Positions 9,944-26,838 of a stretch of DNA of 64,000 nt are shown here, piece by piece. The stretch is from an uncultured Candidatus Saccharibacteria bacterium (GTDB lineage Bacteria; Patescibacteriota; UBA1384; JACPKC01): assembly GCA_964423885.1 (NCBI GenBank), contig CAYRGD010000004.1, positions 8,319-72,318 on the forward strand. The letters run 5' to 3'. The notes under the pieces are model-generated. The model did no database searches. It saw nothing but the letters and a program-made list of their open reading frames with translations, and was not told where the DNA came from. A program made the position numbers and the translations under genes. Each line of letters opens with the position of its first letter. The stretch's first letter is position 1.

Positions 9944-9944
9944 T

Positions 9945-10898
9945 ATGACCGTCTCGGTGATCCTTCCGGCTTACAACGCGGCGGCGACGATCGGGCGGGC
10001 CCTTGCGTCCGTGTTCGCGCAGACGCGGCTGCCCGACGAGCTCATCGTGGTCGACGACGGGTCGACCGACGGCACGGCTGCGGCTGTCACGGCGACGACC
10101 GGGCCGGTACCGGTCCGTTTCATAACCCAAGAGAATGCCGGCCCGGCGGCGGCGCGCAATGCCGGTGCAGCCGCGGCGACAGGCGAGTGGCTCGCGTTCC
10201 TGGACGCCGACGATGCCTGGCTGCCGGGCAAGCTGGCGGTCCAGGCCGCGCTTGCCGAGGCCGATCCGGCACTGGGCCTTGTGATCGGCAACTACGAGAT
10301 CGCCGGGACCGGCAAGCGGCTCGTGCCGGATTTCGTGCCGAGCCCGGCCGCGGCGACGCCCGGGCAACTCCTGCGCACCAATTTCTTCGCGCCGCCGGTC
10401 GTGTTCGTACGCCGGACGGCCTTTCTGGGTGCGGGTGGGTTCGATGTCCGGCTTCGTGCGGCCGAGGACCAGGAGCTCGGGTTCCGCCTTGTGAAACGCG
10501 AGCGGTTCGTGCTCGACCCGGCCGTGGTCGCGACCGTCCATCCGCAGCCGCGGTCGGCCTCGAACCGGGAGCACGAGACCATCGCCGGCCTGCTCGCGTT
10601 GTACGCGCTGCTGCTCCAGCGCGACGATCTCACGGCCGACGAGCGCGAGACGGTCCTTCGGTTGCAGCGGTTCTGGCAAGCCCGGGAACGTCTGTTCGCC
10701 GTGCGCTGGTACGCAGCGGCCGAGGGCCAGCTCGCCGGCCTCGGCGCCTTCGGCCGGTATCTCTGGCCGCGCCATCTGTCTATCCGGGCGTTCGGCCTGC
10801 TCGTACTCCTGCTCGTACCCGGCGCTATCCCGCTCTTGCGCGCCACGCGGTGGCGCTCGCTCGATTTCGGGCCGACCTCGCCGGAGCCTGCCGTATGA
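9945..10898 (+). CDS. Glycosyltransferase family 2
   Basis: ILPAYNAA...LIVVDDGSTDGT and a DxD (LDADDAW) GT-A signature. Confidence 0.8.
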   Translation: MTVSVILPAYNAAATIGRALASVFAQTRLPDELIVVDDGSTDGTAAAVTATTGPVPVRFITQENAGPAAARNAGAAAATGEWLAFLDADDAWLPGKLAVQAALAEADPALGLVIGNYEIAGTGKRLVPDFVPSPAAATPGQLLRTNFFAPPVVFVRRTAFLGAGGFDVRLRAAEDQELGFRLVKRERFVLDPAVVATVHPQPRSASNREHETIAGLLALYALLLQRDDLTADERETVLRLQRFWQARERLFAVRWYAAAEGQLAGLGAFGRYLWPRHLSIRAFGLLVLLLVPGAIPLLRATRWRSLDFGPTSPEPAV

Positions 10899-12319
10899 GC
10901 CTGGCGCGCCGGATCGCCGGCAACACCGCAGTCCAGGTTGTCGGCCGCTTTGCCGTGTCGGCGGCCGCCGTCCTGACGCTCTCGCTCGTGCTGTCCGGGT
11001 TCGGCGCCAGCCTCCAGGGTAAGTACCTGCTCGCCTTGTCGTACGCGCAGTTCGTGGCGACGATCGCCGACTTCGGCCTCAACTCGTACTTGGTACGCGC
11101 CTTCTCGCTCCCAGGCAACGACCGGCAGGTCGGCCAGGTGCTGCCGTTCCGTCTTGCCTTGAGCGTCCTCTTCTTCGGCCTGGGCGCACTGGTCGTGCTA
11201 TGGCTGCCGTACGACGCCGAAGCGCGCCAGGCGGTCTGGATCGCGCTCGTCGCGACCTTCGTCCTGTCGGTGAACGCCGTGTTCGTCGCCTTCTTCCAGG
11301 CCAATCTTCGAATGGGAACCGCGGTCATGGGGGACTTCGCGAACCGGCTCGTCACGCTCGGCGGCACGTACCTGGCGCTCCACCTCGGCCTGCCCTTCCT
11401 CGCGACCCTCGGCGCCGTCTTCGCGGGCGGTGTCGTGAACCTGGCCTGGCTCATGGCAGCTGCCCGGGGCCGGCTCGCTGCCAAGGGGAGTCCCGACCTT
11501 GCCGTCTGGCGGACGCTCGCGCGCAACGCGTTCCCGATCTGGGTGACGACGATCCTGAGCCTGGTGTACTTCCGCATCGACAGCCTGCTGCTGTCCGTAC
11601 TGCCGCTCCCGGCCGGCCGGACCAACCTGACGGAGCTGTCGAACTACGGGACGGCGTACAAGTTCCTTGAGATCCTCATCGCCTTGCCGGGCATGCTGCT
11701 CGGCACGCTCATGCCGCTCCTGGTGCGGGCCGAAGCCGACAGGACGCGCTTCTCGCAGCTCATCCGCCACGCGACCTACCTGGTGTCGCTCTTCGCGGCG
11801 CCGGTGACCGTCGGGACGTTCCTGGTGGCCGACGAGCTCATCGCGACCTTCTTCCCTGCGCTCGGGCCGGCAGCCCAGGCGTTGCGTATCCTTATCTGGG
11901 CGTTCGCCGCCTCGGCCTTGGCCGCGCCGTTCATCTACGCGATCGTGAGCGCAGGCGAGCAGCGCCGGCTCATCGCCCCGAACCTTGTCATCAGTATCGC
12001 CAACGTCACGCTCAACCTGCTGCTCATTCCGCGGACCGGGTTCGTCGGTGCGGCGTGGACGACCGTCGCGTCCGAGGTGGCAGTCTTCGTGGCCGGCTGG
12101 TATGTCGCCGAGGCGCGGTTGGGGCTCGTCCGGCAGCCGTTCGATCGCCGGGTGGTCGGGCCGTGGCTGGCTGCCGCCGTGATGGGCCTGTGTGTTGCGA
12201 TCGCACCGGCGCAGCTGGCTGTCCGTGTCGGAACTGGTATCGTGGCCTACGGTATCGCCCTCGCGCTCGTCGGCGGCATCGACCGCCCGCTCTTCCGTAA
12301 GCTCCTGCCTCGCGCATGA
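10895..12319 (+). CDS. Polysaccharide flippase (Wzx/MOP superfamily)
   Basis: 474 aa with about 12-14 TM segments and the typical Wzx N-terminus (..NTAVQVVGRFAVSAAAVLTLSLV..). ATGA overlap with the upstream GT2 gene. Confidence 0.65.
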   Translation: MSLARRIAGNTAVQVVGRFAVSAAAVLTLSLVLSGFGASLQGKYLLALSYAQFVATIADFGLNSYLVRAFSLPGNDRQVGQVLPFRLALSVLFFGLGALVVLWLPYDAEARQAVWIALVATFVLSVNAVFVAFFQANLRMGTAVMGDFANRLVTLGGTYLALHLGLPFLATLGAVFAGGVVNLAWLMAAARGRLAAKGSPDLAVWRTLARNAFPIWVTTILSLVYFRIDSLLLSVLPLPAGRTNLTELSNYGTAYKFLEILIALPGMLLGTLMPLLVRAEADRTRFSQLIRHATYLVSLFAAPVTVGTFLVADELIATFFPALGPAAQALRILIWAFAASALAAPFIYAIVSAGEQRRLIAPNLVISIANVTLNLLLIPRTGFVGAAWTTVASEVAVFVAGWYVAEARLGLVRQPFDRRVVGPWLAAAVMGLCVAIAPAQLAVRVGTGIVAYGIALALVGGIDRPLFRKLLPRA

Positions 12320-13173
12320 CCCACCCCACCCTGTCGCTCGTCATCTGTACGCTCAACCGCCCGGCGATCCTGCGCCAGGCGCTTGAGGATATTTGGCAAC
12401 TCCCCACGCAGCCCGATGAACTGCTCATCGTGGATCAGACGCCGGAGCTTGATGCTGCGATGCGTGCGTTCTACGACGCCAATGCCGGCCGGCTCCGTCT
12501 GGTGCGGATGGCGCCGCAGGGGCTAGGCCAGGCGCGTAACCGGGCACTGAAGGAGGCGACGGGTGAACGTATCCTGTTCCTTGACGACGACATCCGCGTG
12601 ACGGACGACTTGGTCGCGCTCCATCGACGCCACTTCGCCGATCCGTCGGTCGGCGGCGTGGTCGGCCGGATCGACGACGCCCACGGCGACGCGCCGAGCG
12701 GCGGCGGCCGCGTCAATTGGTTCGGCCGTGTGACGGTCAACCGCGACCTCGCCTCGGTCCACGAGGTCGAGTCGTTGTCCGGGGGGAACATGTCGCTCCG
12801 GACGAAGGCGATCCGCACAGCCGGCGGGTTCTGGGAGCCCGAGGGAAACCGGGTCCAGATGCGCGAGGAAACCGACGCGAGCCTCCGGCTCCGCCGCGCC
12901 GGCTACCGGATCCTGGTCGATCCCGAAGCCAGGATCCTGCACCTGGCGGTCCGCGGCGGCGGCACCCGGACGGACGCCGACCGGCTGCGCTGGTACGAGG
13001 GGTACTTCGCGTCGGAGTTCCAGTACTTTTTCCGTAACTTCCCGGCGTGGAAACTGCCGTTCTTCCTCTGTTCACTCGCGCGGCCGATCCTGGCTTGCGC
13101 GGTCTGGTACGGCAAGCTGCGTCCGGCTGCGGTCGCGGCTCCGTGGCGGGCGCTCGCACGAGCTGCGCGATGA
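12316..13173 (+). CDS. Glycosyltransferase family 2
   Basis: LSLVICTLNRP... and ILFLDDDIRV (DxD). Overlapping start/stop with its neighbours. Confidence 0.75.
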   Translation: MTHPTLSLVICTLNRPAILRQALEDIWQLPTQPDELLIVDQTPELDAAMRAFYDANAGRLRLVRMAPQGLGQARNRALKEATGERILFLDDDIRVTDDLVALHRRHFADPSVGGVVGRIDDAHGDAPSGGGRVNWFGRVTVNRDLASVHEVESLSGGNMSLRTKAIRTAGGFWEPEGNRVQMREETDASLRLRRAGYRILVDPEARILHLAVRGGGTRTDADRLRWYEGYFASEFQYFFRNFPAWKLPFFLCSLARPILACAVWYGKLRPAAVAAPWRALARAAR

Positions 13174-13904
13174 CTGTCCGCGGCCTGACCGTCGGGATTA
13201 TCGCCCGGGACGAGGAGACGGATCTGCCCGGCCTGCTCGCCCAGCTCGGCTTCGCCGAGGCGGTAGTCGTGGTCGTGAGCGCCGAGAGCCGGGACCGGAC
13301 CGCCACGCTTGCCCGCGCTGCCGGCGCCGCCGTCCACGCGTTGCCGTTCACCGATTTTTCGGCGGCTCGGAACGCGGTGCTGGACGCCGCGCCGACCGAA
13401 TGGGTGCTGTTCCTTGACGCGGACGAGCGGCTGACGCCCGCGCTCACGGCAGCGGTTGCGCAGTTCGTAGCAGCTCCCGGCGCGGCGGCCGGGGCGCTCG
13501 TCCATCGGCAAGATGTGTTCCTCGGCCGGCGGCTGCGCCACGGCGATGCCGACGGCTGGTTCCTGCGCCTTGGGAAACGGACGGCAGGCCGATGGGTCCG
13601 GCCGGTCCATGAGACGTGGGAGCTGCCGGGCGAGACGGTCCGACTCGACGGTATCCTTGAACACCACTCGCACAAGAGCGTCGGCGAGTACCTGCGGAAA
13701 ATGGAGGCGTACACCGATCTCGAGGCCGCAACCGGCGAGCAGGCGCATTGGTGGCAGCTCGTCGCGTACCCGGCGGCCAAGTTCGTCCGCGTCTACCTGA
13801 TCCAAGGCGGGATCCTGGACGGCTGGCAGGGGCTCGTGTTCGCGGCGCTCAACGCCCGGTACTCGTTCGCGAAACGTTGGAAGCTTCTGCGGCGCCGTCC
13901 ATGA
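13170..13904 (+). CDS. Glycosyltransferase family 2 (LPS-core GT-like)
   Basis: VGIIARDEETDLPGLL... and VLFLDADERL (DxD). Confidence 0.7.
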   Translation: MTVRGLTVGIIARDEETDLPGLLAQLGFAEAVVVVVSAESRDRTATLARAAGAAVHALPFTDFSAARNAVLDAAPTEWVLFLDADERLTPALTAAVAQFVAAPGAAAGALVHRQDVFLGRRLRHGDADGWFLRLGKRTAGRWVRPVHETWELPGETVRLDGILEHHSHKSVGEYLRKMEAYTDLEAATGEQAHWWQLVAYPAAKFVRVYLIQGGILDGWQGLVFAALNARYSFAKRWKLLRRRP

Positions 13905-15418
13905 CCCAGCCGCGCCGGTTCCTGTTCCTTGCCAGCCTCGCCCTGCTTGCGGCCGGGGCGCTCTGGTCCTACTGGCCCCAACTTACCCACCGGTTCCTGG
14001 TGCCGGTCGGCGGGGACAGCGCCGCGCACGTGAGTATCGCCGAATCGATCCGGGCCGGTACCCGCACCGTGACCGAGTACGGCTACCCGCCGCTGTCACA
14101 TGCCGTCTTCGCGCTCGCGGCCCGCGCGGCCGGCGTGCCGACCGTGACCGCGTTCGCCTGGCTCACGCCCGCGTTGCTTGTATCGGTGGCGCTCGTGTGC
14201 GCCGGCGTCACGTGGCGCTGGCTCAAGTCCTGGCCCGCCGCGCTCATGGCTTTCGCGCTCATGGCCTTCGCGGCGCTCCAGCCGTTCCAGACCTGGCAAG
14301 ACGGGGGATTCCCCGACATCGTCGCCGCCTCGCTCTTCCTGCCGGCCGGGCTCTGGTTTCTGGCCGAGGCCGTCGCCGCCGAGGGCCGGGCGTGCCGGCG
14401 GCCCCTTGCCGGGTACGGGGCAGTGCTCCTACTTATCGTCGCTACCCATCACCTGACGACGCTCACGTTTGTCGGGATCAGTCTCGTATACGTCGCTGTT
14501 GCTGCAGCCGCGGCACGCCTGCACCGTCGACCGGTGCCGTTGGCCGCCCGTGTCGTCGGAGGCGGCCTTATCCTTGCCGGCCTGGCGGTCCTGTTCCTCT
14601 TCCCTGGCCAGCCCGCTCTGCAGCTGACGAAGGCCGCGCTTGTCTTCGACCGGACGTTCCCGTTCGTCCACTCGCTCATGGGGCTCGACGGCCCCGATGC
14701 GCTCCTGCCGCTCACCGCCTTGCCCGACGCGGTCGGCTTGCTTGTCTGCTGGGGCGGCGTCTTCGGGCTGGGGCTCCTGGCGTCCGACCTGCGGCAGGCC
14801 CGGGCGACCAAGCTGCTGTTTTGGGTGTGGGTGCTGACGCTGGTCGCCCTGTCGCAAGTGCCGCAACTGCGGTTTCCGGTCCGGTTCGCGCGCGAGCTCG
14901 GCGTGCCGCTCACGATCCTTGCCGCCTATGCCGGTGTCCGGCTCTGGGCCCTTGTCCGATCGCGCGAGGTGCGGCTGGCCGCACTTCTTGTGCTCACACT
15001 CCTGGCTGTCCAGGCGGTGGACGTCAAGGCGGGGAAGTTGGCCGCGCTGCCGCGCTTCGTCGAGTTCACGGCGGCGGACCGGCAGGCGGCCGACTATCTT
15101 GCCACGAAGGTGCAGCCAGGCGATTGCGTAGCGGTCGTGCCCGAGAACCGGTACTACCCGTACTTTCTGCCGGACGGGATCCGGGTGCTCGTCTACCCGC
15201 TTGACGGGACGCTGCGCCAGCGGGCCGACGCGTTGCCGGATCCGGCTGCCGCTGCGTGGTTCGCCACCTGCCCCTTCGCAGTCGCCGGGCACCGCCCAGG
15301 CGAGGCCGACTGGCCCGGCCGGTTCCAAGTGGCGGGGTTCCGCCCTGCAGCCTCGTTCGGCGACGCGGACCGGGGCGTGACGGTATTTTCGACCCAAGGT
15401 CTGCCTGGCGCCGACTAG
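13901..15418 (+). CDS. Polytopic membrane protein, possibly a GT-C-fold (ArnT/PMT-like) glycosyltransferase
   Basis: About 11 TM segments over roughly 400 aa, a GGDS acidic motif in the first extracytoplasmic loop and a soluble C-terminal domain. Confidence 0.4.
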   Translation: MTQPRRFLFLASLALLAAGALWSYWPQLTHRFLVPVGGDSAAHVSIAESIRAGTRTVTEYGYPPLSHAVFALAARAAGVPTVTAFAWLTPALLVSVALVCAGVTWRWLKSWPAALMAFALMAFAALQPFQTWQDGGFPDIVAASLFLPAGLWFLAEAVAAEGRACRRPLAGYGAVLLLIVATHHLTTLTFVGISLVYVAVAAAAARLHRRPVPLAARVVGGGLILAGLAVLFLFPGQPALQLTKAALVFDRTFPFVHSLMGLDGPDALLPLTALPDAVGLLVCWGGVFGLGLLASDLRQARATKLLFWVWVLTLVALSQVPQLRFPVRFARELGVPLTILAAYAGVRLWALVRSREVRLAALLVLTLLAVQAVDVKAGKLAALPRFVEFTAADRQAADYLATKVQPGDCVAVVPENRYYPYFLPDGIRVLVYPLDGTLRQRADALPDPAAAAWFATCPFAVAGHRPGEADWPGRFQVAGFRPAASFGDADRGVTVFSTQGLPGAD

Positions 15419-15451
15419 ACGCCACCCGGTCCGGCGGCCATACTGGCAACT

Positions 15452-16573
15452 ATGCGCCTTGTCCTTGATGCCCGCTTCTGGCGCCGCGAGACCGGCGGCA
15501 TCGGCCGGTACAGCCGCGAGCTCGTCGCGGAGCTGCTGCGCCTCGGGACCGACGACGAGTTCCACCTGGTCCTGACGCCGGCCGACGCGGCCGAATATGC
15601 GCTCGACGACCCGCGGGCGCATGCCCACGTCGTGCCGATCCCGTACTACTCGGCGGCCGAGCAGCTCCGGTTGCCCGGCGTCCTTGCTGGGTTGCGGCCC
15701 GACCTGGTCCACTTTTTGAATTTCAACCAGCCGCTCCGCTACGGCGGCCGGCGCGTGACGACGATCCATGACCTGACGGTCAAGTACTTTCCGGTCGGAC
15801 GGTCGCAGCGGAATCCGGTCCGCCGCCTGGCGCTCACCGCCACGATGCGGCGTGCCGCCCATTCCGACGGCGTGATCGCGATCTCGCGCGCCACCAAGGC
15901 CGACCTCATTCGCGACTTCAGGATCGAGCCGACCCGCGTGGCGGTCATCGGCGAGGCGGCCGACGCCCGGTTCCGCCCGCATGACACGGCCGAGCTCGCC
16001 CGGTTCCGGCGCCGCGTGGGGCTCGACGGGCCGTACATCCTGTTCGTCAACCAGTGGCGGCCGCACAAGGGCCTGCCCGATCTCGTGGCTGCCTTCGGCA
16101 CCCTCAAGCGCAGACGACATCTGCCGCACAAGCTCGTGATCACAGGCAAGCCCAATCCGCAGTTTCCCGACCTCATTGCCGCGATCGAGCGGTCGCCGCA
16201 CCGGGCTGACATCGTCCTGCCCGGGTTCGTGTCCGACGACGACCTGCCCGGCTACTACGCCGCTGCCGACGCGCTGGCGTTCCCGAGCGCCTACGAGGGC
16301 TTCGGCCTTGGTGTGCTCGAGGCGATGCAGTCGGGCACGCCCGTGGTCGTGAGCGAGGTGTCGTCGCTGCCCGAGGTTGCCGGTGACGCCGCGTTGTTCG
16401 TGCAGCCGGGCCGTCCGGACGAGTTGGCAGCGCAGCTCGGGCGGGTCATCGGCGACCCGGCGCTCGCCGCCGAGCTCGGCCGCCGGGGGATCGCCCGGGC
16501 AAGCCGGTTCAGCTGGGCGGAAACGGCCCGGCAAACATACGCGCTGTACCGGTCGGTGGCCGGACAAGACTGA
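15452..16573 (+). CDS. Glycosyltransferase family 4
   Basis: MRLVLDARF..GGIGRY N-terminus and a C-terminal GT4 E-x7-E-like region (FPSAYEGFGLGVLEAMQSGTPVV). Confidence 0.8.
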   Translation: MRLVLDARFWRRETGGIGRYSRELVAELLRLGTDDEFHLVLTPADAAEYALDDPRAHAHVVPIPYYSAAEQLRLPGVLAGLRPDLVHFLNFNQPLRYGGRRVTTIHDLTVKYFPVGRSQRNPVRRLALTATMRRAAHSDGVIAISRATKADLIRDFRIEPTRVAVIGEAADARFRPHDTAELARFRRRVGLDGPYILFVNQWRPHKGLPDLVAAFGTLKRRRHLPHKLVITGKPNPQFPDLIAAIERSPHRADIVLPGFVSDDDLPGYYAAADALAFPSAYEGFGLGVLEAMQSGTPVVVSEVSSLPEVAGDAALFVQPGRPDELAAQLGRVIGDPALAAELGRRGIARASRFSWAETARQTYALYRSVAGQD

Positions 16574-16677
16574 CACGTTATCCCCACGCCGTCCGGTCGC
16601 GGCCCGTGGCAGGAGCGGGTATACTCGATCGACAGTAGTCCGTGAGTCGACCGACGGGGCAGGTCTATTGGAGGTGT

Positions 16678-17055
16678 ATGGCCAACGAGACACGTATCCT
16701 TGTCGCCGAAGACGAGCCCGCGATCGCCAAGGCGCTCGAGCTGAAACTCACCCATGCCGGGTACCAGGTCGACTGGGCCGCCGACGGCGACGAAGCGCTC
16801 GCCAAACTCGACGACGGAAAATACTCCCTGCTCCTGCTCGACCTCATCATGCCGAAGAAAGACGGGTTCGGGGTACTCGAGGCGCTGCAGTCGGGCAAGC
16901 GCAAGGTGCCGGTGATCGTGCTTACGAACCTGGGCCAGGAAGAAGACCTGGAGCGGGCCAAGAAGCTGGGCGCGACCGACTACTTCGTGAAGGCGGACAC
17001 CCCGATCGCCGAGGTGGTCAGCCACGTGGAGGATAAACTCAAACATGCGGATTGA
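16678..17055 (+). CDS. Stand-alone REC-domain response regulator (CheY/PilH-like) directly upstream of pilB
   Basis: ILVAEDEP...LLLLDLIMPKKDG...VIVLTN..K receiver motifs, GGAGG SD and an 11-nt overlap with pilB. Confidence 0.8.
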   Translation: MANETRILVAEDEPAIAKALELKLTHAGYQVDWAADGDEALAKLDDGKYSLLLLDLIMPKKDGFGVLEALQSGKRKVPVIVLTNLGQEEDLERAKKLGATDYFVKADTPIAEVVSHVEDKLKHAD

Positions 17056-18694
17056 CGACGCGAAACTCCAGACGATCCTCTCGAAAGAGCACTATGTCGG
17101 CGAGGCCGACCTCGCCAAGGCGGTCGCCTTTACGCGCGAGCACAAGACGCCGCTCGCCGATTACCTGCTGACCGCCGGGCTCATTACCGACGAGCTCTTG
17201 GGCCAGGCGATCGCCGAGTCGTTCACCGTGCCGTACGCCGACCTGGCTGCCCATCCGCCGCTCCGCGACCAAGTGCTCAAGATCCCGTTCGCCGTCGCGA
17301 CCGCCCACCGGCTGATTCTGTTCGAAGACGAACCGAAGCAGGTCGTCGTCGCCACCGACGCGCCCGACAGCACGGATGCCAAGCAGGCCCTGGCCGAGGT
17401 CTTTCCTGGCCGTAAGGTCGCGTTCGCCTACGCCCTGCCCTCGGCGATCGACGAGCAGCTCGGTTTCTTCCGTAAGCCGCTCGAGACGCGGACCAGCAAG
17501 ATCATCGAGGACGGCGGCCACGTCGCCCCGGAAATCATCGACGCGATCATCGACGACGCGATCAGCCTGCGGGCAAGCGACATCCACTTCGAGCCGGAGG
17601 CTGACGAGGTGATCGTCCGGTTCCGGATCGACAGCGTGCTCCAGGAAGGCGTTCGGATCGCGCGCGAGCACTACGAGACGATCGTCAACCGCATCAAGGT
17701 CCAGGCCCGGATGCGGATCGACGAACACCACGAGGCGCAGGACGGCGCGATCCGCTACGAACAGCACGAACGGACGGTCGACCTGCGTGTCTCGGTGGTA
17801 CCGACGCTCGACGGCGAGAAGGTCGTGATGCGCGTGCTCGCCGAGTACGTCCGCAGCTTCACGCTCGCGAACCTCGGCCTGTCGGCCCGCCACCAGGCCG
17901 AGCTTACGGCCGCGGCCAAGAAGCCGTTCGGCATGGTGCTCGTCACCGGCCCGACCGGTGCCGGCAAGACGACGACGCTCTACGCGCTGCTCAAATTATT
18001 GAACCGCCCCGAGGTCAACATCACCACGATCGAGGACCCGGTCGAGTACAAGGTGCCGGGTATGAACCAGATCCAGGTCGATCCGCTCACCAACCTGACC
18101 TTCGCGAGCGGGTTGAAATCGATCCTCCGGCAGGATCCGGACATCATCCTGGTGGGCGAGGTCCGCGACGAAGAGACGAGCGAGATCGCGATCAATGCGG
18201 CACTGACCGGCCACCTGCTCTTCACGACGTTCCACGCCAACGACGCCGCGACCGCGATCCCGCGCCTGCTCGACATGCACGTCGAGCCGTACCTGCTGTC
18301 GTCGACGCTCACGGTCATCATCGCCCAGCGGCTGGTGCGGCGGATCTGCACGAACTGCCGCTACAGCCAGACCTTGAAGCTCGCACAGGTCGAAAAGGTG
18401 CTGCCGGGTGCCAAGCGGTTCTTCGACGGCACCATGGTGACGCTCTACAAGGGCAAGGGCTGCGAGGTCTGCCATGGCACCGGGTACCGTGGCCGGATCG
18501 GGATCTTCGAGTTCCTGCCAGTGACGCCACAGCTCCAAGAGCTCATCCTCACCAATCCGTCGGGCGCCGAGATCGCCCGGCTGGCCGTCAAGCAAGGAAA
18601 CCCGACGATGTTCGACGACGGCATCGAGAAGGTGCTCGCCGGTATCACGACGCTCGACGAACTGATGCGCGTCACCGCGCCGCCGGCGGCATAA
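17045..18694 (+). CDS. pilB: Type IV pilus assembly ATPase PilB (GspE family)
   Basis: N-terminal GSPII_E_N domain, Walker A GPTGAGKTTT, Asp/His boxes and a tetracysteine C-x2-C...C-x2-C. Confidence 0.9.
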   Translation: MRIDDAKLQTILSKEHYVGEADLAKAVAFTREHKTPLADYLLTAGLITDELLGQAIAESFTVPYADLAAHPPLRDQVLKIPFAVATAHRLILFEDEPKQVVVATDAPDSTDAKQALAEVFPGRKVAFAYALPSAIDEQLGFFRKPLETRTSKIIEDGGHVAPEIIDAIIDDAISLRASDIHFEPEADEVIVRFRIDSVLQEGVRIAREHYETIVNRIKVQARMRIDEHHEAQDGAIRYEQHERTVDLRVSVVPTLDGEKVVMRVLAEYVRSFTLANLGLSARHQAELTAAAKKPFGMVLVTGPTGAGKTTTLYALLKLLNRPEVNITTIEDPVEYKVPGMNQIQVDPLTNLTFASGLKSILRQDPDIILVGEVRDEETSEIAINAALTGHLLFTTFHANDAATAIPRLLDMHVEPYLLSSTLTVIIAQRLVRRICTNCRYSQTLKLAQVEKVLPGAKRFFDGTMVTLYKGKGCEVCHGTGYRGRIGIFEFLPVTPQLQELILTNPSGAEIARLAVKQGNPTMFDDGIEKVLAGITTLDELMRVTAPPAA

Positions 18695-18704: not shown

Positions 18705-20180
18705 ATGGGGCAGGCGACGACACCATCCACACTGCGCCGGACGACGAACGCGCTCGAGCTCGTCGGCATCGGGCCGGAGCGCGACCAGTTCCTTGAGAAC
18801 CTGTCGCTGCTCGTCGGATCCGGCACCGGCGTGCTCGTGGCGCTCGACAGCCTCCAGGCTGACGCCCGGTCGCATGCGATGCGCCGAATCATCGGCCGCG
18901 TGCGTGCGGACGTGGACGCCGGCCAGCCGTTGTCGAAGGCGCTCGCCGCCACCGGTTTGCTGTCGCCGCAGGTGATCTCGCTGCTCGCGATCGGCGAGTC
19001 GTCGGGCCGGCTGCCCGAGAACCTCAAGGTCGTGGCCGTCCAGCAGCAGAAAGAGCGGCTGTTCCAGTCGAAGCTGGTCTCGGCGATGATCTACCCGGCA
19101 CTCGTGTTCGGCATCACCATCCTGGTCGGGCTCATCATCGCCTGGTTCATCCTGCCGAAACTGGCATTGGTCTTTGGCCAGCTCCAGCTCGACCTGCCGG
19201 TCATGACCAAGATCCTCATCGCCGTAGGCGCGTTCCTCAACCGCTACGGGATCGTCGCCGTCCCGGCGCTCATCGCCGCCGGCGTCGTGGCGACCTACCT
19301 GTGCTTCTTCGCCGCGCCCACGCGCTGGATCGGCGAGCGGTTTATCCTGGCGATCCCCGGCCTGCGGCGCGTCGTCGTCGAGGTCGAACTCGCCCGGTTC
19401 AGTTACGTGATGGGCACCCTGCTCGAGGCCGGCCTGCCCGTACTCGACACGCTCGGGGCGATCGAGTCGGCGACGCCGTTCACGACCTACCGGCGCCTCT
19501 ACGGCCACCTGCGCCGCCAGCTGGCCGACGGCCACTCGTTCCGCAGCGCGCTCGAGTCGTACCCGAACGTCCGCCTGCTCGTCCCGATCCCGATCCAGCA
19601 GCTTATCAACGCCTCGGAGCAGTCCGGCAGCTTGGCCGGCTCGTTCCTGCGTATCAGCGCCCTGTACGAAGAGAAGACCGATATCACGACCAAGAACCTG
19701 GTCGTGGTCATCGAGCCGGTGTTGCTCGTACTGGTTTGGCTCGGCGTCATGTTCGTGGCTGTCGCCGTCATCCTGCCGATCTACCGGCTCGTGGGTGAGT
19801 TCAATACGACGGCCCTCGAACCGGCCACGTCGACGGAGCCGACCGTGACCGAGGCGGAGACGCCAGTGAGCGTACCGGTGGTAGCCAAGGCGGTACCCGA
19901 GGCGCCGGCCGACGGCCTGCCGCTGCCCGGCACCGTGTTGGGTGCACGCGATCCCGCGGCGACCGCTGCAGCCAGCCAGCCGACCGTGCTTGTGGCTGAC
20001 GGCGTGAGCTACGTCAACGTCCGCGACCGGCCGAGCGAGCACGGTGCGCTGGTCGGCCGCGCCGAGCCGGGCACGGACTACCCGGTGCTCGCAGCGGACA
20101 GCGGGTGGTACCAGATTACGTTGCCAGCAGGAGGGGTGGGGTGGGTATCCGGCCAGTTCGTCACGACCGTACAGCAGTAA
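18705..20180 (+). CDS. pilC: Type IV pilus platform protein PilC (GspF family) fused to a C-terminal SH3b-like domain
   Basis: Two GspF repeats (...IESATPF.., ..LYEEKTD..) with 3 TM segments, then a Thr/Pro/Ala linker and YVNVRDRPS..GWYQITLP..GWVSGQFV (bacterial SH3-like). Confidence 0.8.
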   Translation: MGQATTPSTLRRTTNALELVGIGPERDQFLENLSLLVGSGTGVLVALDSLQADARSHAMRRIIGRVRADVDAGQPLSKALAATGLLSPQVISLLAIGESSGRLPENLKVVAVQQQKERLFQSKLVSAMIYPALVFGITILVGLIIAWFILPKLALVFGQLQLDLPVMTKILIAVGAFLNRYGIVAVPALIAAGVVATYLCFFAAPTRWIGERFILAIPGLRRVVVEVELARFSYVMGTLLEAGLPVLDTLGAIESATPFTTYRRLYGHLRRQLADGHSFRSALESYPNVRLLVPIPIQQLINASEQSGSLAGSFLRISALYEEKTDITTKNLVVVIEPVLLVLVWLGVMFVAVAVILPIYRLVGEFNTTALEPATSTEPTVTEAETPVSVPVVAKAVPEAPADGLPLPGTVLGARDPAATAAASQPTVLVADGVSYVNVRDRPSEHGALVGRAEPGTDYPVLAADSGWYQITLPAGGVGWVSGQFVTTVQQ

Positions 20181-20620
20181 GCGGCGCCGTTGAGCACGGC
20201 TTCACGTTGCTCGAGGTGCTGCTGTCGCTTGCGCTCATGTCGGCGATCGTCGGCGTGTCCGCGCCGATCTACCAGTCGTTCCAAGTGAAGAACGACCTCG
20301 ACCTGGCCGCCAACGCGGTCGCTGCGGGGTTCCGCCGCGCCCAGATCCTGTCGCTCGCGAGCGACGGCGACAGCTCGTGGGGCGTCCATATCGCTGCCGG
20401 CTCGATCACGATCTTCAAGGGTGCGAGCTACGCTGGCCGCGACAGCGCCTACGACGAAACCACCGTCGTGCCGGGCACGATCACGCCGACCGGTCTTGGC
20501 GACGCGGTCTTCGCGCGTGTCACCGGCGCCTCGGGCGCGGCCGGGACGGTGACCCTGACCGCGAGCACCGGCCAGGTGCGCACGGTCGCGCTGTCGGCGA
20601 AAGGTACGGTGACGTACTGA
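20141..20620 (+). CDS. Pseudopilin/minor pilin with a class III (prepilin) signal. GTG start preceded by AGGAGG.
   Basis: ...EHG|FTLLEVLLSLALMSAIVGV. RBS AGGAGG at 20129-20134. Overlaps the pilC 3' end. Confidence 0.65.
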   Translation: MGIRPVRHDRTAVSGAVEHGFTLLEVLLSLALMSAIVGVSAPIYQSFQVKNDLDLAANAVAAGFRRAQILSLASDGDSSWGVHIAAGSITIFKGASYAGRDSAYDETTVVPGTITPTGLGDAVFARVTGASGAAGTVTLTASTGQVRTVALSAKGTVTY

Positions 20621-23600
20621 TGCACGTCCGGCCGACCGACAACCGGGCAGCGCACGGCCAGGGCGGCTTCTCGCTCGTCGAGGCGATGCTGTCGGCCGCG
20701 GTGTTCTCGATCGTGGTCACGAGCTTCGCCGGCGCGCTCATCGTGGGCCAGCAGTCCACGCTCGGTGCCGGTGCCCGCGCCCGGGCGATGAACCTGGCCG
20801 AAGAGGGGCTCGAGTCGGTCCGCAACATCCGCGACCAGGCGATGAACGAGCTCCAGTACGCCCAGAGCGGCGTCCAGGTGTCCGGCAACGTCTGGGGGTT
20901 CCTGGGCGAGGGTTCGACCGAAACGATTGACACGTTCACGCGCACGATCAGTTTCGGGGACGTGTGCCGCACCGGCGCGAACGTGATCGCCGCCTGCCCG
21001 GCGAGCTACACCGACCCGCACACGAAACAGGTCACCGTCGCGGTCAGCTGGCCGGTCGGGCCGGGATTGACCACCAGCTCGGTCACCCGGGTGAGCTACC
21101 TGACCGATTGGGAATCGGCCAGCTGGACGCAGACCAACTGGATCGGCGGGTCGGGACAAGTCGCCTGGTCGGCCACCGACAAATACGACAGCGCGACCGG
21201 CGTCAACGTTGGCGTCGCCGGCCAGGTGACGCTGGCTGGCATGGGCGGCGGTCTCTTTGTCGACGACGAGCAGGCCGAGTTCAACGCGGGGTCGCACAGC
21301 CAGACGCAGTACGATACCGGCAATACCTGGCTGGAGCTCACCGGTGCCGGCCAGACCGCCGGTACCGGCACGTTCACCTCGCGGATCTTCGATGCCGGCG
21401 GCACGGCGGTGTGGTCGGCGTTCGATTGGGTGCCGGTCCGGCCGACCGGCAAGGAACTGCCGAACGACGGCGCGACCGAGTCCGGCTACGCGGCCGGCAA
21501 CGTCGCCATGACGAACAACCAGTTCCTGTACCACCTGAACCAGAACTCGGGCGCCACGAGCTTCACGGACAACTCCGGCAACGGCCGCACTGCCACCTGT
21601 GCCGGCGGCCAGTGTCCCACGGCGGGCGTGGCCGGCAACCAAGGGAATGCGGTCACGTTCGACGGCACGAACGACCGCTTGACGAGCCCGGTCAACCTGG
21701 CGACCTACCTGGGCGGTACCTCGTCGTTGAGCGTCTGGATCAAAACCACCCAGACCGGCAACGCCACCTTCTGGGAAGCCCCGGGTATCACCGGTGTCGA
21801 GAGCAACGGGAACGGGAACGACATTTTCTGGGGTTGGATCAGTAACACCGGCCGGATCGGGTTCAACGTCGGTGACGGGGGCGGGCTCTTGAGCGCCAAT
21901 CCGATCAACAACAACCAGTGGCACCACGTGCTCATGACCAGGAACGCTACCACCGGCGCGATCGCGCTCTACGTCGACGGTGTCGCGCAGACCGGCACGA
22001 GCGACACCGGCGCGAAGACGACCGCCTTCACGACGATCGGGATGGTCGATGATACGGGCGGCACCCCGACGTTCTACGCCGGCTCGATGGACGAACTCGC
22101 CGTCTGGAACCGCGTACTCAGTCCCACCGAGGCGGCCGATATCTACCGCCGGGGCGCGCTCAACCTCACCTTCCAAGTCCGCTCCTGCGACGACGCGGCC
22201 TGCGCGGGCGAGTCGTTCATGGGGCCGGACGGCACCGGCAGTACGGTGTATTCGGAGATCGCGAACGCTACGCTGAATCCGCCGGCCACAACGGTGACGA
22301 ACGTTGCCAATAACCGGTACATGCAGTACCGCGCCGTACTGACGACGCTGAACGCCTCGCTCTCGCCGGAAGTGACCAAGGTCTCGCTGCCGCATATCGG
22401 GCTGCTCATCGACGATACGCAGGCGGAGTTCAATACGGGAACCTATACTGCCACCCAGTACGATACCGGCAACAGCTGGCTGGAGCTCACAGCTGGCGGC
22501 CAGAGTGCCGGTACCGGCACCTATGCCTCGGAAGTCTTCGACATCGGCGGTGCTGCCGCCTGGTCGACATTCGGCTGGCTGCCGCAGCGGCCGACAGGAA
22601 AGGAGTTGCCGGGCGCCGGTGGTATGGAAACGGGGTATACGACCGGGAATATGGCTATGACCGGCAACGTGCTCCTCGCGCATCTCAACGAGGCGTCGGG
22701 TACCACCTTCGCGGACAGCTCCGGCACCGGCAACAACGGCACCTGCACCGGCGTCGGCTGCCCCACATACGGCTCGGCAGGGAAGTTGGCCCAGGCGATC
22801 ACCGCAAACGGCACGAACGACGAGATAGTGGTGCCGGACGCGGCATCGCTCGATATCGCCGACGACCTCACGGTGATGGGGTGGTTCAACGCGACCGGCG
22901 CCGGTACCGCGCTCGGCGACATCGGGAACGCCACGATCGACTCGCTCGAGTTCGACACCGCCGACGGCCAGACGCCGGATATCCTGCAGGTGTCCGGCGA
23001 CGTCTACGTGGTCGCGTACACCGGTCCGGGGCAGGACGGCTGGCTGGCAACCTTCACGATCGACAGTTTCGGCAACGTGGGCAACGCCGTCATTGACACG
23101 CTCGAGTTCGATACCGCGGACGGCCGCTCGCCGTCGATCGTGCACGTCTCGGGCAACATCTACGCCGTGGCGTACGACGGCGTCGACAACGACGGCTGGG
23201 TGAAGACCTTCTCGATCACGCCGGCCGGCGATATCAGCAACGCCACGATCGATTCACTGGAATTCAATACCACGAACGGTCTGACGCCGCACCTGGTCCA
23301 TGTCTCCGGCACCGCCTACGCCGTCGCGTACACCGGGCCGGACGGCGACGGCTGGGTGACGTCCTTCACGATCAGTGCTGCCGGCGACATCAGCAACAGC
23401 ACGGTCGATTCCTTGGAGTTCGATACCGCCGACGGGTTGCGGCCGTATCTCTTTCCGGTCTCGGGCAACATCTACGCCGTGGCGTACACCGGGCCTGCGG
23501 GGGACGGGTTCCTCAAATCATTCACCGTTAGCGGCACCGGCGACATCGGGAACAGCGTGATCGATACGCTCGAATTCGACACCGCCGACGGCCAGGCACC

Positions 23601-24927
23601 ATCCGTGGTCCACGTATCCGGGAACGTCTTCGCGGTCGCCTATCGCGGGCCGGGCGACGACGGTTGGGTGAAGACGGTGACCATTAGCGGCACCGGCGAT
23701 ATCGGGAACGCCACCGTCTCTTCCTTCGAGTTCGATGCGTCGAACGGCCTGGCACCGCAGATCGCGCACGTCCACGGCAATGTCTACGCTGTCGCGTATA
23801 CCGGCCCAGGCAACGACGGATGGTCGGCCACCTTCACGATCAGTCCGGCGGGCACGATCGGTGGCGCGACCATCGACACGTTCGAGTGGAACACCAGCGA
23901 CGGCGTCGAGGCGTCGCTCATCCACGTCAATCGGGATATCTGGGCCGTCGCCTACCAGGGCCCGGCCGGCGACGGCTTCGTGACCACCTTCGACATCGCG
24001 AGCAACCGCGGCGTCTCGAAGAGCGGTGCCTACGGCCTGTCTTCGACCACCACGACCGCGACAGGTATTATCAACGGCGTGACGGTATCGAGCGCCATCA
24101 CCAGCGGATGGCACCACTTGGCACTCACCTACGACAACGATCTCGGCTCGAACCAAATCCGACTGTTCGTCGACGGCACCCAGACGGCGACGGCAACCCT
24201 GACCGCCGACATCAATCTCAATGATTGGGACGCGGTGCTCGGGAGCCAGTTCGCCGGCGCACTCGACGAGGTGGCGGTGTTCAGCCGGATGCTGTCGGCC
24301 ACGGAGGTGAACGATGCTTGGCGCCGCGGGGCGCTCCGGGCCAATTACCAAGTCCGCTCCTGCGACGACGCGGCCTGCGCGGGCGAGTCGTTCATGGGGC
24401 CGGACGGCACCGGCAGTACGGTGTACTCGGAGCTCATGAATACCGGCCTGACGCCGCCGAGCGCACTCCCGCTCACGAACGTCGCCGATAACCAGTACTT
24501 TCAATACCGAGTCGTACTTGAGACCGACGCCGCGGCTATTTCCCCGGAGATCCGATCGGTGACCATCCAGCACGGCGCGGGCGGCGGCAGCGGATACCAG
24601 GTAGCGGGGTCGCTGCTGTCGTCGGCGTATAATATGGGCGACGCCTCGCCGGTCGAAATCATCGAATGGGACCAGCAGGCTGCAAGCTGCAGTCCGGCCT
24701 GTTCGATCCGGTTCCAGTTGCGGACAGCGCCGGACAACGCCGGTTCGCCCGGCACGTGGACGGGCTGGTACGGCGCGACCGGTCCCGGCACCTACTTCAC
24801 GGCTGCGACCGGTACACGGGTCCCTGTGGCCTTGAACGGCAACCAGTGGGTGCAGTACCGCGTCGAGCTCGCCGGGGACGGTACCGACACCCCGACACTC
24901 GACGAAGTCCGCGTATACTACCGGTAA
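20620..24927 (+). CDS. Giant prepilin-anchored adhesin-like pseudopilin (1435 aa): two LamG/ConA-like modules plus 7 tandem propeller-like repeats of about 52 aa
   Basis: MHVRPTDNRAAHGQG|FSLVEAMLSAAVF prepilin N-terminus. A unit of about 370 aa is duplicated. 7 repeats of ..LEFDTADG..VSGN.YAVAYTGPG.DGW..TFTIS..G.IGNA.. Confidence 0.75.
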   Translation: MHVRPTDNRAAHGQGGFSLVEAMLSAAVFSIVVTSFAGALIVGQQSTLGAGARARAMNLAEEGLESVRNIRDQAMNELQYAQSGVQVSGNVWGFLGEGSTETIDTFTRTISFGDVCRTGANVIAACPASYTDPHTKQVTVAVSWPVGPGLTTSSVTRVSYLTDWESASWTQTNWIGGSGQVAWSATDKYDSATGVNVGVAGQVTLAGMGGGLFVDDEQAEFNAGSHSQTQYDTGNTWLELTGAGQTAGTGTFTSRIFDAGGTAVWSAFDWVPVRPTGKELPNDGATESGYAAGNVAMTNNQFLYHLNQNSGATSFTDNSGNGRTATCAGGQCPTAGVAGNQGNAVTFDGTNDRLTSPVNLATYLGGTSSLSVWIKTTQTGNATFWEAPGITGVESNGNGNDIFWGWISNTGRIGFNVGDGGGLLSANPINNNQWHHVLMTRNATTGAIALYVDGVAQTGTSDTGAKTTAFTTIGMVDDTGGTPTFYAGSMDELAVWNRVLSPTEAADIYRRGALNLTFQVRSCDDAACAGESFMGPDGTGSTVYSEIANATLNPPATTVTNVANNRYMQYRAVLTTLNASLSPEVTKVSLPHIGLLIDDTQAEFNTGTYTATQYDTGNSWLELTAGGQSAGTGTYASEVFDIGGAAAWSTFGWLPQRPTGKELPGAGGMETGYTTGNMAMTGNVLLAHLNEASGTTFADSSGTGNNGTCTGVGCPTYGSAGKLAQAITANGTNDEIVVPDAASLDIADDLTVMGWFNATGAGTALGDIGNATIDSLEFDTADGQTPDILQVSGDVYVVAYTGPGQDGWLATFTIDSFGNVGNAVIDTLEFDTADGRSPSIVHVSGNIYAVAYDGVDNDGWVKTFSITPAGDISNATIDSLEFNTTNGLTPHLVHVSGTAYAVAYTGPDGDGWVTSFTISAAGDISNSTVDSLEFDTADGLRPYLFPVSGNIYAVAYTGPAGDGFLKSFTVSGTGDIGNSVIDTLEFDTADGQAPSVVHVSGNVFAVAYRGPGDDGWVKTVTISGTGDIGNATVSSFEFDASNGLAPQIAHVHGNVYAVAYTGPGNDGWSATFTISPAGTIGGATIDTFEWNTSDGVEASLIHVNRDIWAVAYQGPAGDGFVTTFDIASNRGVSKSGAYGLSSTTTTATGIINGVTVSSAITSGWHHLALTYDNDLGSNQIRLFVDGTQTATATLTADINLNDWDAVLGSQFAGALDEVAVFSRMLSATEVNDAWRRGALRANYQVRSCDDAACAGESFMGPDGTGSTVYSELMNTGLTPPSALPLTNVADNQYFQYRVVLETDAAAISPEIRSVTIQHGAGGGSGYQVAGSLLSSAYNMGDASPVEIIEWDQQAASCSPACSIRFQLRTAPDNAGSPGTWTGWYGATGPGTYFTAATGTRVPVALNGNQWVQYRVELAGDGTDTPTLDEVRVYYR
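22173..22250 (+). repeat. 78-bp perfect direct repeat, copy 1 of 2 (copy 2 at 24348..24425)
   Basis: Identical 78 nt encode ..QVRSCDDAACAGESFMGPDGTGSTVY.. in both LamG-like modules. Confidence 0.85.
22918..24010 (+). repeat. Seven tandem coding repeats of about 156 bp (52 aa) each. They are divergent at the DNA level and conserved at the protein level.
   Basis: Repeats read directly from the translation: IDSLEFDTADGQTPDILQVSGDVYVVAYTGPGQDGWLATFTIDSFGNVGNAV and six more. Confidence 0.7.
24348..24425 (+). repeat. 78-bp perfect direct repeat, copy 2 of 2
   Basis: Identical to 22173..22250; about 2.2 kb apart within the same gene. Confidence 0.85.
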
Positions 24928-24931: not shown

Positions 24932-25465
24932 ATGCCGCTGCTGCCTCACCCTGCCCGTCGTGCCGCCCGCTCCCGCGGCTTCACGCTGGTCGAGCTCCTG
25001 CTCTACCTGGCGATCACGTCGATCATCATCACGAGCGTCTCCGGGTTCCTGATCACCATGCTGCAGGCCCGGGCCAAGTTCCAGACGATCAGCGAGGTCG
25101 AGGCGCAGGGCCAGCAGGCGATGCAGGCGATCACCCAGACGATCCGGAACGGCACGGCGATCACGAGCCCCGGCACGGGTACCTCGGCGGCCGCGCTCAC
25201 GATCACGGTCCCGACCGGCCCCTTGAGTCCGACCGTCTTCGACCTGTCGGGCGGCATCGTCCGCGTCAAGGAGGGCACGGGCGCGGTCCAGAACCTGACG
25301 ACCAGCCGGGTGACGGTGTCGGGCCTTGCGTTCGACAACCTGACCCGGGCCACCACCCAGGGGACGGTCCGGATCACGTTCACGGTCACGAGCGTCAACA
25401 CGAGCGGCCGGAACGAGTTCAGCTACGCCAAGACCTTCCGCGATACTGCCACCTTCCGCCAATGA
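24932..25465 (+). CDS. Pseudopilin/minor pilin (prepilin-type N-terminus)
   Basis: ...SRG|FTLVELLLYLAITSIIITSV class III signal. Confidence 0.7.
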   Translation: MPLLPHPARRAARSRGFTLVELLLYLAITSIIITSVSGFLITMLQARAKFQTISEVEAQGQQAMQAITQTIRNGTAITSPGTGTSAAALTITVPTGPLSPTVFDLSGGIVRVKEGTGAVQNLTTSRVTVSGLAFDNLTRATTQGTVRITFTVTSVNTSGRNEFSYAKTFRDTATFRQ

Positions 25466-25866
25466 CCCGCCGCACCGACCCTGCCGCCGGCTACGTCACC
25501 TTGCTTACGGTGTTGGTCGTGAGCGCCGTCGGCGTCGCGATCACGAGCTCGCTGCTCCTCCTGGGGCTCGGTAACGCCCGTTCGGGCCTGGCGCTCCAGC
25601 AGGCGAAAAACGCGGCTGCGCTCGCCGACGCCTGTGCCGAGGAGGCGCTCCAGCAGATGCGTTTCTCGCCGGCGTACTCGGGGACGGCCACCCTGTCGCT
25701 CGGCGCCGGCAGCTGCACGTACACGGTCACCGTGGGCGTGGGCGAGGCCCGCGAGGTGCGCTCGACCGGCACGGTCGGCTCGGTCGTCCGCAAGGTCATC
25801 GTTGCCGTGAGCGCGCTCACCCCGAAGACGGTCGTCGCCTCGTGGCAGGAAGTGGCGTCGTTCTAG
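25462..25866 (+). CDS. PilX-like minor pilin / pilus assembly protein
   Basis: N-terminal hydrophobic helix (GYVTLLTVLVVSAVGVAITSSLLLL), small Ala/Thr-rich domain and an ATGA overlap with the upstream pseudopilin. Confidence 0.5.
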   Translation: MTRRTDPAAGYVTLLTVLVVSAVGVAITSSLLLLGLGNARSGLALQQAKNAAALADACAEEALQQMRFSPAYSGTATLSLGAGSCTYTVTVGVGEAREVRSTGTVGSVVRKVIVAVSALTPKTVVASWQEVASF

Positions 25867-25931
25867 CTATCCACTAGCCAAGCGGCCTATCGATAGGCAC
25901 TATGAATGAAACAAGTACAAGGAGGGTTGCA

Positions 25932-26372
25932 ATGCATGAGCAGCGGCGCGGGTTCACGTTACTCGAAATTCTCTTGGTCGTCGGCGCGATCAGCATCCTG
26001 GCCGCCATCGTGATCGTGGCCCTGAACCCCACGAAGCAGCTCGCCGATACCCGCAACGCCCAGCGCCGGGTCGACGTGAATACGATCCTCAATGGCATCT
26101 ATCAGTACGCGATCGACCACAACGGCTCGCTGCCGGCAGCCATCACCACCAGCGCGACCGGGATCTGCCGGACCGATGGCGTGGACTGCAGCACGCTCAT
26201 CGACCTGCCGGAACTGACCACCAACGGCACCTACTTGGTGGCGATCCCACGCGACCCGACGGCTGCGGACGCGGACACCACCGGCTACACCGTCCTCAAG
26301 AACGTGAACAACCGGGTTACCGTGAGCGCCCCGTCCGCCGAGAGCGGCGCCACGATCAGCGTCACCCGCTAG
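25932..26372 (+). CDS. Type IV (major) pilin, GspG/PulG-like; tandem copy 1
   Basis: MHEQRRG|FTLLEILLVVGAISILAAIV, then ..ADTRNAQRRVDVNTILNGIYQYAIDHNGSLP.. AAGGAGG SD upstream. Confidence 0.8.
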   Translation: MHEQRRGFTLLEILLVVGAISILAAIVIVALNPTKQLADTRNAQRRVDVNTILNGIYQYAIDHNGSLPAAITTSATGICRTDGVDCSTLIDLPELTTNGTYLVAIPRDPTAADADTTGYTVLKNVNNRVTVSAPSAESGATISVTR

Positions 26373-26394: not shown

Positions 26395-26838
26395 ATGAAC
26401 CAGCACCGGTCGAAGCGCGGCTTCACCCTCTTGGAAATCCTGCTCGTCGTCGGCGCGATCGCCATCATCGCCGGCATCGTGATCCTCGCGATCAACCCGA
26501 GCAAGCAGCTCGCCGATACCCGTAACGCCCAGCGCCGGGTCGACGTGAACACGATCTTGAACGGCATCTACCAGTACGCGATCGACAACAACGGCGCCCT
26601 GCCGGCGACGATCACCGTCACCTCGACGCCGATCTGTAACACCGGCGGCACCTGCACCGGGCTCATCGACTTAGGCGTCCTGACGGCAAGCGGCACCTAC
26701 CTTGTCTCGATCCCGAAGGATCCGACCGGCGCCACGGTCAACAGCACGGCCTACAACGTGAGCAAGAACGCCAATGGCCGCGTGACCGTCAATGCCCCGT
26801 CCGCCGAGAGCAGCGCGACGATTTCGGTGACCCGCTAA
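26395..26838 (+). CDS. Type IV (major) pilin, tandem paralog; copy 2
   Basis: MNQHRSKRG|FTLLEILLVVGAIAIIAGIV. Largely identical in sequence to copy 1. Confidence 0.8.
   Translation: MNQHRSKRGFTLLEILLVVGAIAIIAGIVILAINPSKQLADTRNAQRRVDVNTILNGIYQYAIDNNGALPATITVTSTPICNTGGTCTGLIDLGVLTASGTYLVSIPKDPTGATVNSTAYNVSKNANGRVTVNAPSAESSATISVTR

Follow-up and report, generated by a model that had tools for sequence, protein, structure and literature searches.

A platform protein with a C-terminal SH3 domain

Within the 64,000-nucleotide stretch of contig CAYRGD010000004.1 analysed here (the window) is a type IV pilus operon that includes a gene for a PilC/GspF-family platform protein extended at its C terminus by a bacterial SH3 domain (SH3b). 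The gene, at positions 18705–20180 of the forward strand, on which all operon features given below also lie, is a single open reading frame (ORF) encoding 491 residues and ending with TAA at 20178–20180. Read from the sequence, its ATG lies 11 nt downstream of the stop codon of the PilB gene. A preliminary description of this DNA had pictured a canonical PilC with two repeats and three transmembrane segments, followed by a linker and an SH3 domain, and Pfam, self-alignment and hydropathy bear out this architecture. The extents given there need adjusting: the core ends at about residue 365, not after roughly 400 residues, and the SH3 pattern at the C terminus, put at about 70 residues, occupies about 63 (residues 427–489) with an additional N-terminal strand.

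The PilC core spans residues ~29–365 and matches the T2SSF family (PF00482) in two stretches (E value 4.8e-44). Repeat 1 (residues 29–151; 18789–19157) covers positions 1–125 of the 125 in the Pfam profile, is modelled with a predicted local distance difference test score (pLDDT) above 90, and corresponds to cytoplasmic domain 1 running into the first transmembrane segment. Repeat 2 (residues ~232–363; 19398–19793), delimited by self-alignment and Pfam, corresponds to cytoplasmic domain 2 running into the third. The internal duplication pairs residues 33–156 with residues 236–363 (self-alignment score of 81). Hydropathy (Kyte–Doolittle, 19-residue window) gives three hydrophobic segments, with none beyond residue 362: TM1 (residues 126–152; 19080–19160; peak 2.78), inside an AlphaFold2 helix at 103–160; TM2 (residues 179–204; 19239–19316; peak 2.30), with a helix at 166–201; and TM3 (residues 334–362; 19704–19790; peak 3.15), with a helix at 310–369. 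By family topology, TM3 is predicted to be the final membrane crossing, from which the chain exits outward. The full-length AlphaFold2 model, built on an alignment of 81 homologues, has a mean pLDDT of 86.7, with values above 90 in the helical core and below 50 at residues 370–425.

With the PilC, GspF and ComGB proteins of known systems (Thermus thermophilus PilC, Vibrio cholerae EpsF, Klebsiella oxytoca PulF and Streptococcus sanguinis ComGB) the window protein shares the two T2SSF repeats, the three transmembrane segments, a predicted all-helical core and a gene position between a PilB-type ATPase and prepilins; the PilB/GspE-type ATPase and prepilin gene neighbours typical of the T2SSF family are both present. 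Whereas the canonical proteins end 1–7 residues past TM3, the window protein adds ~125 residues predicted to be extracytoplasmic. The core scores far under the equivalog cut-offs of the NCBIfam models for GspF (TIGR02120, 174.7 versus 424), PilC (NF052606 and NF052607, 135.9 versus 700 and 117.3 versus 700) and ComGB (NF041012, 112.6 versus 240), and no named subtype can therefore be assigned; by sequence it counts as a divergent member among the platform proteins of type IV filament systems. The same GspF, PilC and ComGB models stop at window residues 362–366, which fits the statement in the preliminary description that PilC proteins normally end just past the last transmembrane segment.

Joining the core to the SH3b domain is a linker (residues ~366–426; 19800–19982) that is predicted to be disordered, acidic and extracytoplasmic. 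It had been called Thr/Pro/Ala-rich, and its composition (14 Ala, 10 Thr, 10 Pro and 9 Val among 67 residues) and pLDDT below 50 agree. The linker is a disordered, low-complexity segment in every SH3-bearing homologue, rich in Thr, Pro, Glu, Ser and Ala and 32–105 residues long across the 81 homologues (median of 58).

Experiments on platform proteins have established a topology in which three transmembrane segments link two large cytoplasmic domains (PMC10191384), and the C-terminal helix of PulF is described as periplasm-facing (PMC10790770). Because each T2SSF domain is followed by a transmembrane segment, and only TM3 comes between cytoplasmic domain 2 and the tail, the latter should lie outside. 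In the 81 homologues Lys and Arg make up 12–15% of the cytoplasmic domains versus 5% of the linker, in which Asp and Glu account for 13.5%; the SH3 domain likewise has an acidic net charge. No convincing extra hydrophobic segment was present in the tails of these homologues, the highest 19-residue hydropathy in any of them being 1.69 versus 2.3–3.2 for the transmembrane segments of the window protein. The extracytoplasmic position put forward in the preliminary description is thus a well-grounded prediction, consistent with family topology, with an acidic and Lys/Arg-poor tail and with the lack of a fourth transmembrane segment. As predicted, then, the window protein has the three transmembrane segments, two cytoplasmic domains and outward C terminus of its family.

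Fold and relatives of the tail

The SH3b domain (residues ~427–489; 19983–20171) comprises seven β-strands and is identified by Pfam, by a family hidden Markov model (HMM), by AlphaFold2 and by Foldseek. It matches SH3_3 (PF08239) at residues 436–486 with 35.0 bits (gathering score of 27 bits), and the HMM of the tail family scores it at 78 bits. In the full-length model the C-terminal 63 residues are all-β, with seven strands and pLDDT of 91–97, and modelling the tail by itself gave a mean pLDDT of 93, so that the SH3 pattern first noticed in the letters is matched by a predicted SH3 fold.

The highest structural similarity in the PDB is observed for 4krt (template modelling score, TM-score, of 0.83, root-mean-square deviation of 1.6 Å and 28% identity), the SH3_3 domains of the endolysin Psm from Clostridium perfringens phage phiSM101. 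Next are C. perfringens entries 2krs and 2kt8, Bacillus subtilis YrvJ and the NlpC/P60 peptidases 4r0k, 3npf and 3h41. SH3_3 domains head the Foldseek list (TM-scores of 0.77–0.83), with eukaryotic SH3 domains ranking lower, and a sequence profile of the tail searched against PDB sequences returned the same set of matches (4krt, E value 2e-16). The SH3_3 pair of Psm has been described as its cell-wall-binding domain (PMC7999503). Across the SH3b homologues Trp468 is invariant and Asn438, Arg440, Gly479 and Trp480 are at least 90% conserved; the tail keeps the SH3_3 hallmark motifs LNVR..PS and GW..I....G..GWV.

The tail thus resembles the SH3_3 wall modules (4krt; 2krs, 2kt8 and 2kyb; 3h41, 3npf and 4r0k; YrvJ) in profile, fold and motifs. 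In hydrolases such a domain brings secreted enzymes to the wall, whereas the window SH3b sits on a polytopic membrane component of a motor, with no catalytic domain. An SH3_3-like domain combined with a membrane anchor is also found in TIGR04211 (SH3_and_anchor, YgiM-type), but the match is weak (31.8 bits versus a cut-off of 65), the anchor and the domain order differ, and the window protein is not a member of that family. SH3_3 is a broad family: among 1.84 billion cluster representatives the tail profile matched 28,781, and the top 150 of these all carry 2–18 tandem SH3_3 repeats and are uninformative on PilC fusions. Further copies of the tail type of SH3 domain were absent from all six reading frames of the window and from the flanks of 80 related loci.

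Distribution and inheritance of the fusion

Relatives were compared at two levels: as loci, taking the best 80 of 328 relatives from a scan in which each species was represented by a single genome, and as proteins, taking the 120 best-scoring cluster representatives from a collection of 5.8 billion proteins. The preliminary description had asked for such a survey of homologues, and the fusion proved to be common in it. T2SSF and SH3_3 (PF00482 and PF08239) occur together in 105 of the 120 representatives, which are 39–67% identical, and an SH3 domain is present in 54 of the 80 loci, in tandem in two of the 54. Among the remainder, 24 stop 1–7 residues past TM3, in keeping with the normal end of a PilC protein; one is cut within the linker by the end of its contig; and one (L073) has a 69-residue Ser/Thr-rich tail without SH3, which looks from its sequence like a decayed SH3 remnant. 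An identical copy of the window protein is encoded in an independent public assembly (Logan SRR12712864).

Record titles of the loci include Berkel-, Magasanik-, Moranii-, Uhr-, Doudna-, Kerfeld-, Jackson-, Buchanan-, Nomura-, Dojka- and Gracilibacteria, WWE3, Altimarinota and Paceibacteria. By these names the SH3 fusion is the majority form of its PilC clade across most named Patescibacteria lineages, not the single-gene oddity for which it had been taken. Tandem SH3 pairs are seen in the PilC homologues of L042 (8001–9581) and L055 (5352–7037) and in P0013, with labels that include Gracilibacteria and Altimarinota.

Twelve loci (L005, L012, L023, L024, L027, L036, L046, L052, L059, L068, L071 and L073) carry labels such as Gammaproteobacteria, Pseudomonadales, Bdellovibrionales, Cyanobacteria and Acidimicrobiales; these are species-representative metagenome-assembled genomes (MAGs) that are probably mislabelled or mis-binned. 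As evidence for the fusion outside the candidate phyla radiation (CPR), these non-Patescibacteria labels were rejected, as the same operon is found there at 33–50% G+C and mislabelling of the MAGs is the probable cause.

The domain and the core have diverged together. Pairwise distances in the SH3 domain correlate with those in the core (Mantel r of 0.48, a value reached by none of 2,000 permutations), with a mean identity of 42% in the domain versus 53% in the core, and this co-variation indicates that the SH3 domain has been passed on together with the core and has stayed constrained. In a rough neighbour-joining tree built from the PilC core, SH3-less forms are interspersed with SH3-bearing ones, and the same candidate-phylum names cover both. 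We read this pattern as an old fusion from which the tail has probably been lost repeatedly; paralogy within genomes may be another account of the scattered SH3-less forms. As many relatives have lost it, the tail would be accessory and not essential.

The sequences themselves are not new, since automated annotation already places PF00482 and PF08239 together on hundreds of database proteins. In the full-text literature searched, the fusion is nowhere mentioned or interpreted, and a preprint on the TM7x type IV pilus (bioRxiv 10.1101/2024.11.25.624915) does not mention SH3. The fusion is real, widespread and mechanistically suggestive; the functions considered below are drawn from homology.

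A possible tether between platform and cell wall

The reading that we favour, with a probability of about 0.5, is that the SH3b domain binds the cell's own wall and thereby tethers or positions the platform. Its ligand would be peptidoglycan or a wall-linked polymer, and two or three flexible tethers would run from each platform oligomer to the overlying wall. They would keep the motor beneath the point at which the pilus crosses the wall and would withstand the pull and torque that pilus extension generates. A spacer of ~60 residues would, by our estimate, reach ~10–20 nm (at 0.2–0.35 nm per residue), a distance similar in scale to that separating membrane and wall in monoderm envelopes, and a spacer that is always present and 32–105 residues long is as expected for a gap-spanning element.

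Diderm type IVa pili couple to peptidoglycan through the AMIN domains of PilQ and the LysM domains of TsaP and FimV, which are joined to the platform through PilMNOP. The role proposed here, mechanical coupling of the machine to peptidoglycan, is the same, but AMIN and LysM are folds other than SH3b, and the diderm domains sit on secretin or alignment proteins, whereas in the window the SH3b domain is on the platform and there is presumed to be no outer membrane. Wall coupling, a job that in diderm bacteria falls to PilMNOP together with PilQ, TsaP and FimV, would here be built directly into the platform protein.

The preliminary description had placed the tail in an organism lacking PilMNOPQ-type scaffolds. 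In the window, whose 64 kb are the extent over which this genome was seen, no scanned ORF was found to encode PilM, PilN, PilO, PilT or PilD, and none of the neighbour clusters that recur in the operon and the 8 kb around it in the 80 loci resembles any of the five. The retraction ATPase PilT and the prepilin peptidase PilD may lie elsewhere in the genome. Judged by eye from their sequences, the recurrent neighbours look like UvrC-like and UvrD-like proteins, glycosyltransferases, an O-antigen-ligase-like protein, a kinase and EF-G. As a statement about the organism the claim goes too far, since 64 kb is a fraction of a genome and PilM homologues are reported from most Patescibacteria phyla (bioRxiv 10.1101/2024.11.25.624915); the pilus loci of the saccharibacterium TM7x contain pilM, pilN and pilO (same preprint). 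Patescibacteria are thought to have no outer membrane (PMC12102498), and a secretin is therefore not expected.

Several points weigh against a wall tether. In the working model of the motor, the PilB hexamer turns the platform in 60-degree steps (PMC10191384), and if the platform rotates, a firm tether would wind up its linkers, which is hard to reconcile with that model. The tail is no core mechanical requirement, as 25 of the 80 loci lack SH3 in an otherwise identical operon. It need not replace an alignment complex, given the reported spread of PilM. Lastly, not all SH3_3 members bind peptidoglycan. The conflict with rotation leaves three possible ways out: binding that is transient, a ligand other than the wall, or a platform that is a fixed part of the machine.

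The first of these is a possible but distinctly less probable account, in which the SH3b domain binds the wall weakly and transiently, as a locator that finds or marks a certain state of the peptidoglycan (gaps, new wall or poles) or as a recruiter of a hydrolase that would let the pilus through the wall. It draws on the same wall-binding homology as the tether, and on the use of SH3_3 domains as targeting modules in hydrolases; it would accommodate the many lineages in which the tail is dispensable, and it removes the conflict with a rotating platform. Recruitment of a hydrolase, however, finds no partner in the neighbourhood, no hydrolase gene being conserved across the 80 loci, either inside the operon or in the 8 kb around it, and weak and strong binding cannot be told apart from sequence.

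A ligand other than the wall has a similarly modest chance. The SH3b domain would then bind a protein at the platform's outer opening and act in priming, gating or oligomerization; its partners would be pilins, the priming complex of minor and giant pilins, an S-layer protein or the Pro-rich linker of an adjacent subunit. Trimer models of the platform (PulF and ComGB) set the C-terminal helices round a central channel (PMC10790770, PMC10191384), so that the C terminus of PilC adjoins the channel in which pilins are handled, and the operon offers about six pilins, one of 1,435 residues. The linker is Pro-rich, SH3 folds classically take Pro-rich peptides, and eukaryotic SH3 domains do appear lower in the fold search. 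The best matches in both sequence and structure are nevertheless all wall-targeting SH3_3 domains and none is a peptide-binding one; a spacer of 32–105 residues would be needless for reaching a partner at the membrane surface; and pilins are poorly conserved across lineages (bioRxiv 10.1101/2024.11.25.624915), whereas the SH3b domain is conserved.

Somewhat less probable again, and in our view unlikely, is the third way out, in which the SH3b tails fix PilC to the wall, making the platform a stator and functionally replacing PilMNOP(Q). An untethered PilB hexamer would then turn against PilC, or rotation would be limited to what winding and unwinding of the linkers permits.

That the fusion is a frameshift or assembly artefact, or that its tail is cytoplasmic, is scarcely credible, and nothing was found in favour of either: the identical protein in the Logan assembly, the in-frame fusion with variable linker lengths in relatives (54 of 80 loci and 105 of 120 clusters) and the co-divergence of SH3 domain and core rule out the former, and family topology, charge and the lack of a fourth transmembrane segment rule out the latter; the preliminary description had named both as ways to be wrong.

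Type IV pili are the best-supported means by which Patescibacteria attach to host cells and move on them, and how the pilus machine is held and passes the wall in single-membrane cells is poorly understood. Should the tether exist, a wall-binding domain in the platform would be a compact solution that has not been described for any model system, and a wall-tethered PilC would bear on whether the platform rotates, a central point of pilus mechanics; a stator would call into question how generally the rotating-platform model applies to type IV filament assembly. The wide spread of the tail over lineages and its apparent repeated loss provide a test bed with natural controls. Whatever its ligand, the SH3b domain identifies the one region of appreciable size in the core motor that is predicted to be extracytoplasmic.

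The pilus operon

The operon begins with a response-regulator receiver gene (16642–17055; Pfam Response_reg, E value 1e-23) that overlaps the start of the PilB gene by 11 nt; most of the 80 loci have a member of its cluster (c1) ahead of the PilB gene. Following it is the PilB/GspE-type extension ATPase (17045–18694), with T2SSE (E value 1e-121) and an N-terminal MshEN domain (34.4 bits), which, like PilC, falls under the NCBIfam equivalog cut-offs, here those for GspE and PilB.

Downstream of the PilC gene, and overlapping it by 40 nt, is the first of about six prepilin genes encoded in the operon (20141–20620; N_methyl, TIGR02532 above its cut-off, and membership of a pilin cluster). Its start is probably a GTG at 20141, and position 20105, the start given in the mechanical ORF list, is probably too far upstream: an AGGAGG at 20128–20133, within the codons of the SH3 domain, precedes the GTG. 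This arrangement suggests translational coupling of PilC and the first prepilin, as far as the letters indicate.

Next is a giant prepilin of 1,435 residues (20620–24927; Pfam N_methyl, and Laminin_G_3 with an E value of 1.5e-28). Its features are a class-III signal (GFSLVEAM), a pair of LamG/Laminin_G_3 domains and some seven ~52-residue repeats (IDSLEFDTADG...VYAVAYTGPG.DGW), which possibly form a seven-bladed propeller. The same operon slot in related loci holds a pilin of 200–1,700 residues, and the giant prepilin is therefore the probable pilus adhesin.

Further prepilins, recognized by N_methyl matches and cluster membership, lie at 24932–25465, 25902–26372 and 26395–26838, and a small conserved pilin-like protein (25462–25866) was assigned by membership of cluster c4. 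After the last prepilin come one unknown gene, a gene for a HAMP-domain protein (27391–28377) and, at the operon end, a PAS histidine kinase gene (28374–30266); the latter two were identified by Pfam and have homologues downstream of the pilins in related loci. The backbone of response regulator, PilB, PilC, prepilins (one of them large) and small pilin-like protein recurs in the 80 loci, whether SH3-bearing or not, and receiver or histidine-kinase genes lie downstream of the pilus operon in many of them. Signalling genes thus bracket the operon in the window, with a receiver-only regulator and the MshEN domain (cyclic di-GMP-type) of PilB on one side and the HAMP protein and PAS kinase on the other, and most of the 80 loci likewise have receiver and kinase genes next to the operon.

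Lineage and genomic surroundings

The window has a G+C content of 66%, versus a median of 44% in the 80 related loci, and only its closest PilC relatives (L002, L003 and L016) are similarly G+C-rich (59–65%, with values of 65% and 62% among them). The nearest named relatives of its NAD-dependent DNA ligase, LigA, are Ca. Berkelbacteria (67–70%) and other Patescibacteria. The ligase relatives and the G+C content together place the window in a high-G+C Patescibacteria lineage and point to an unusually G+C-rich clade near Ca. Berkelbacteria.

Wall synthesis is represented in the window by genes for a Mur ligase and for an RpfB-like protein, a setting that fits binding to the organism's own wall. 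A run of envelope-polysaccharide and wall-synthesis genes (2605–16573) immediately precedes the pilus operon; its products are glycosyltransferases of the GT1, GT2 and GT4 families, a flippase resembling Wzx, a Wzy/O-antigen-ligase-like protein and the Mur ligase. The upstream envelope genes are partly the same in L003, L004, L007 and L016. The RpfB/YabE-like wall protein (DUF348–G5–DPBB) is encoded directly before KsgA, with RsmI, MetRS and TatD nearby (36101–38055 and 39905–42101), a neighbourhood that resembles that of Actinomycetota and Bacillota.

Rfam and tRNA scans of the window returned nothing except three tRNA genes (Ser-GCT, Arg-GCG and Arg-CCG at 2321–2581, forward strand), which are unrelated to the fusion. 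At 46001–48000 the G+C content dips to 0.547 from ~0.66, in a region that holds a class-I methyltransferase gene (46272–47051) and an unannotatable minus-strand ORF (47145–47795) and may be a foreign insertion.

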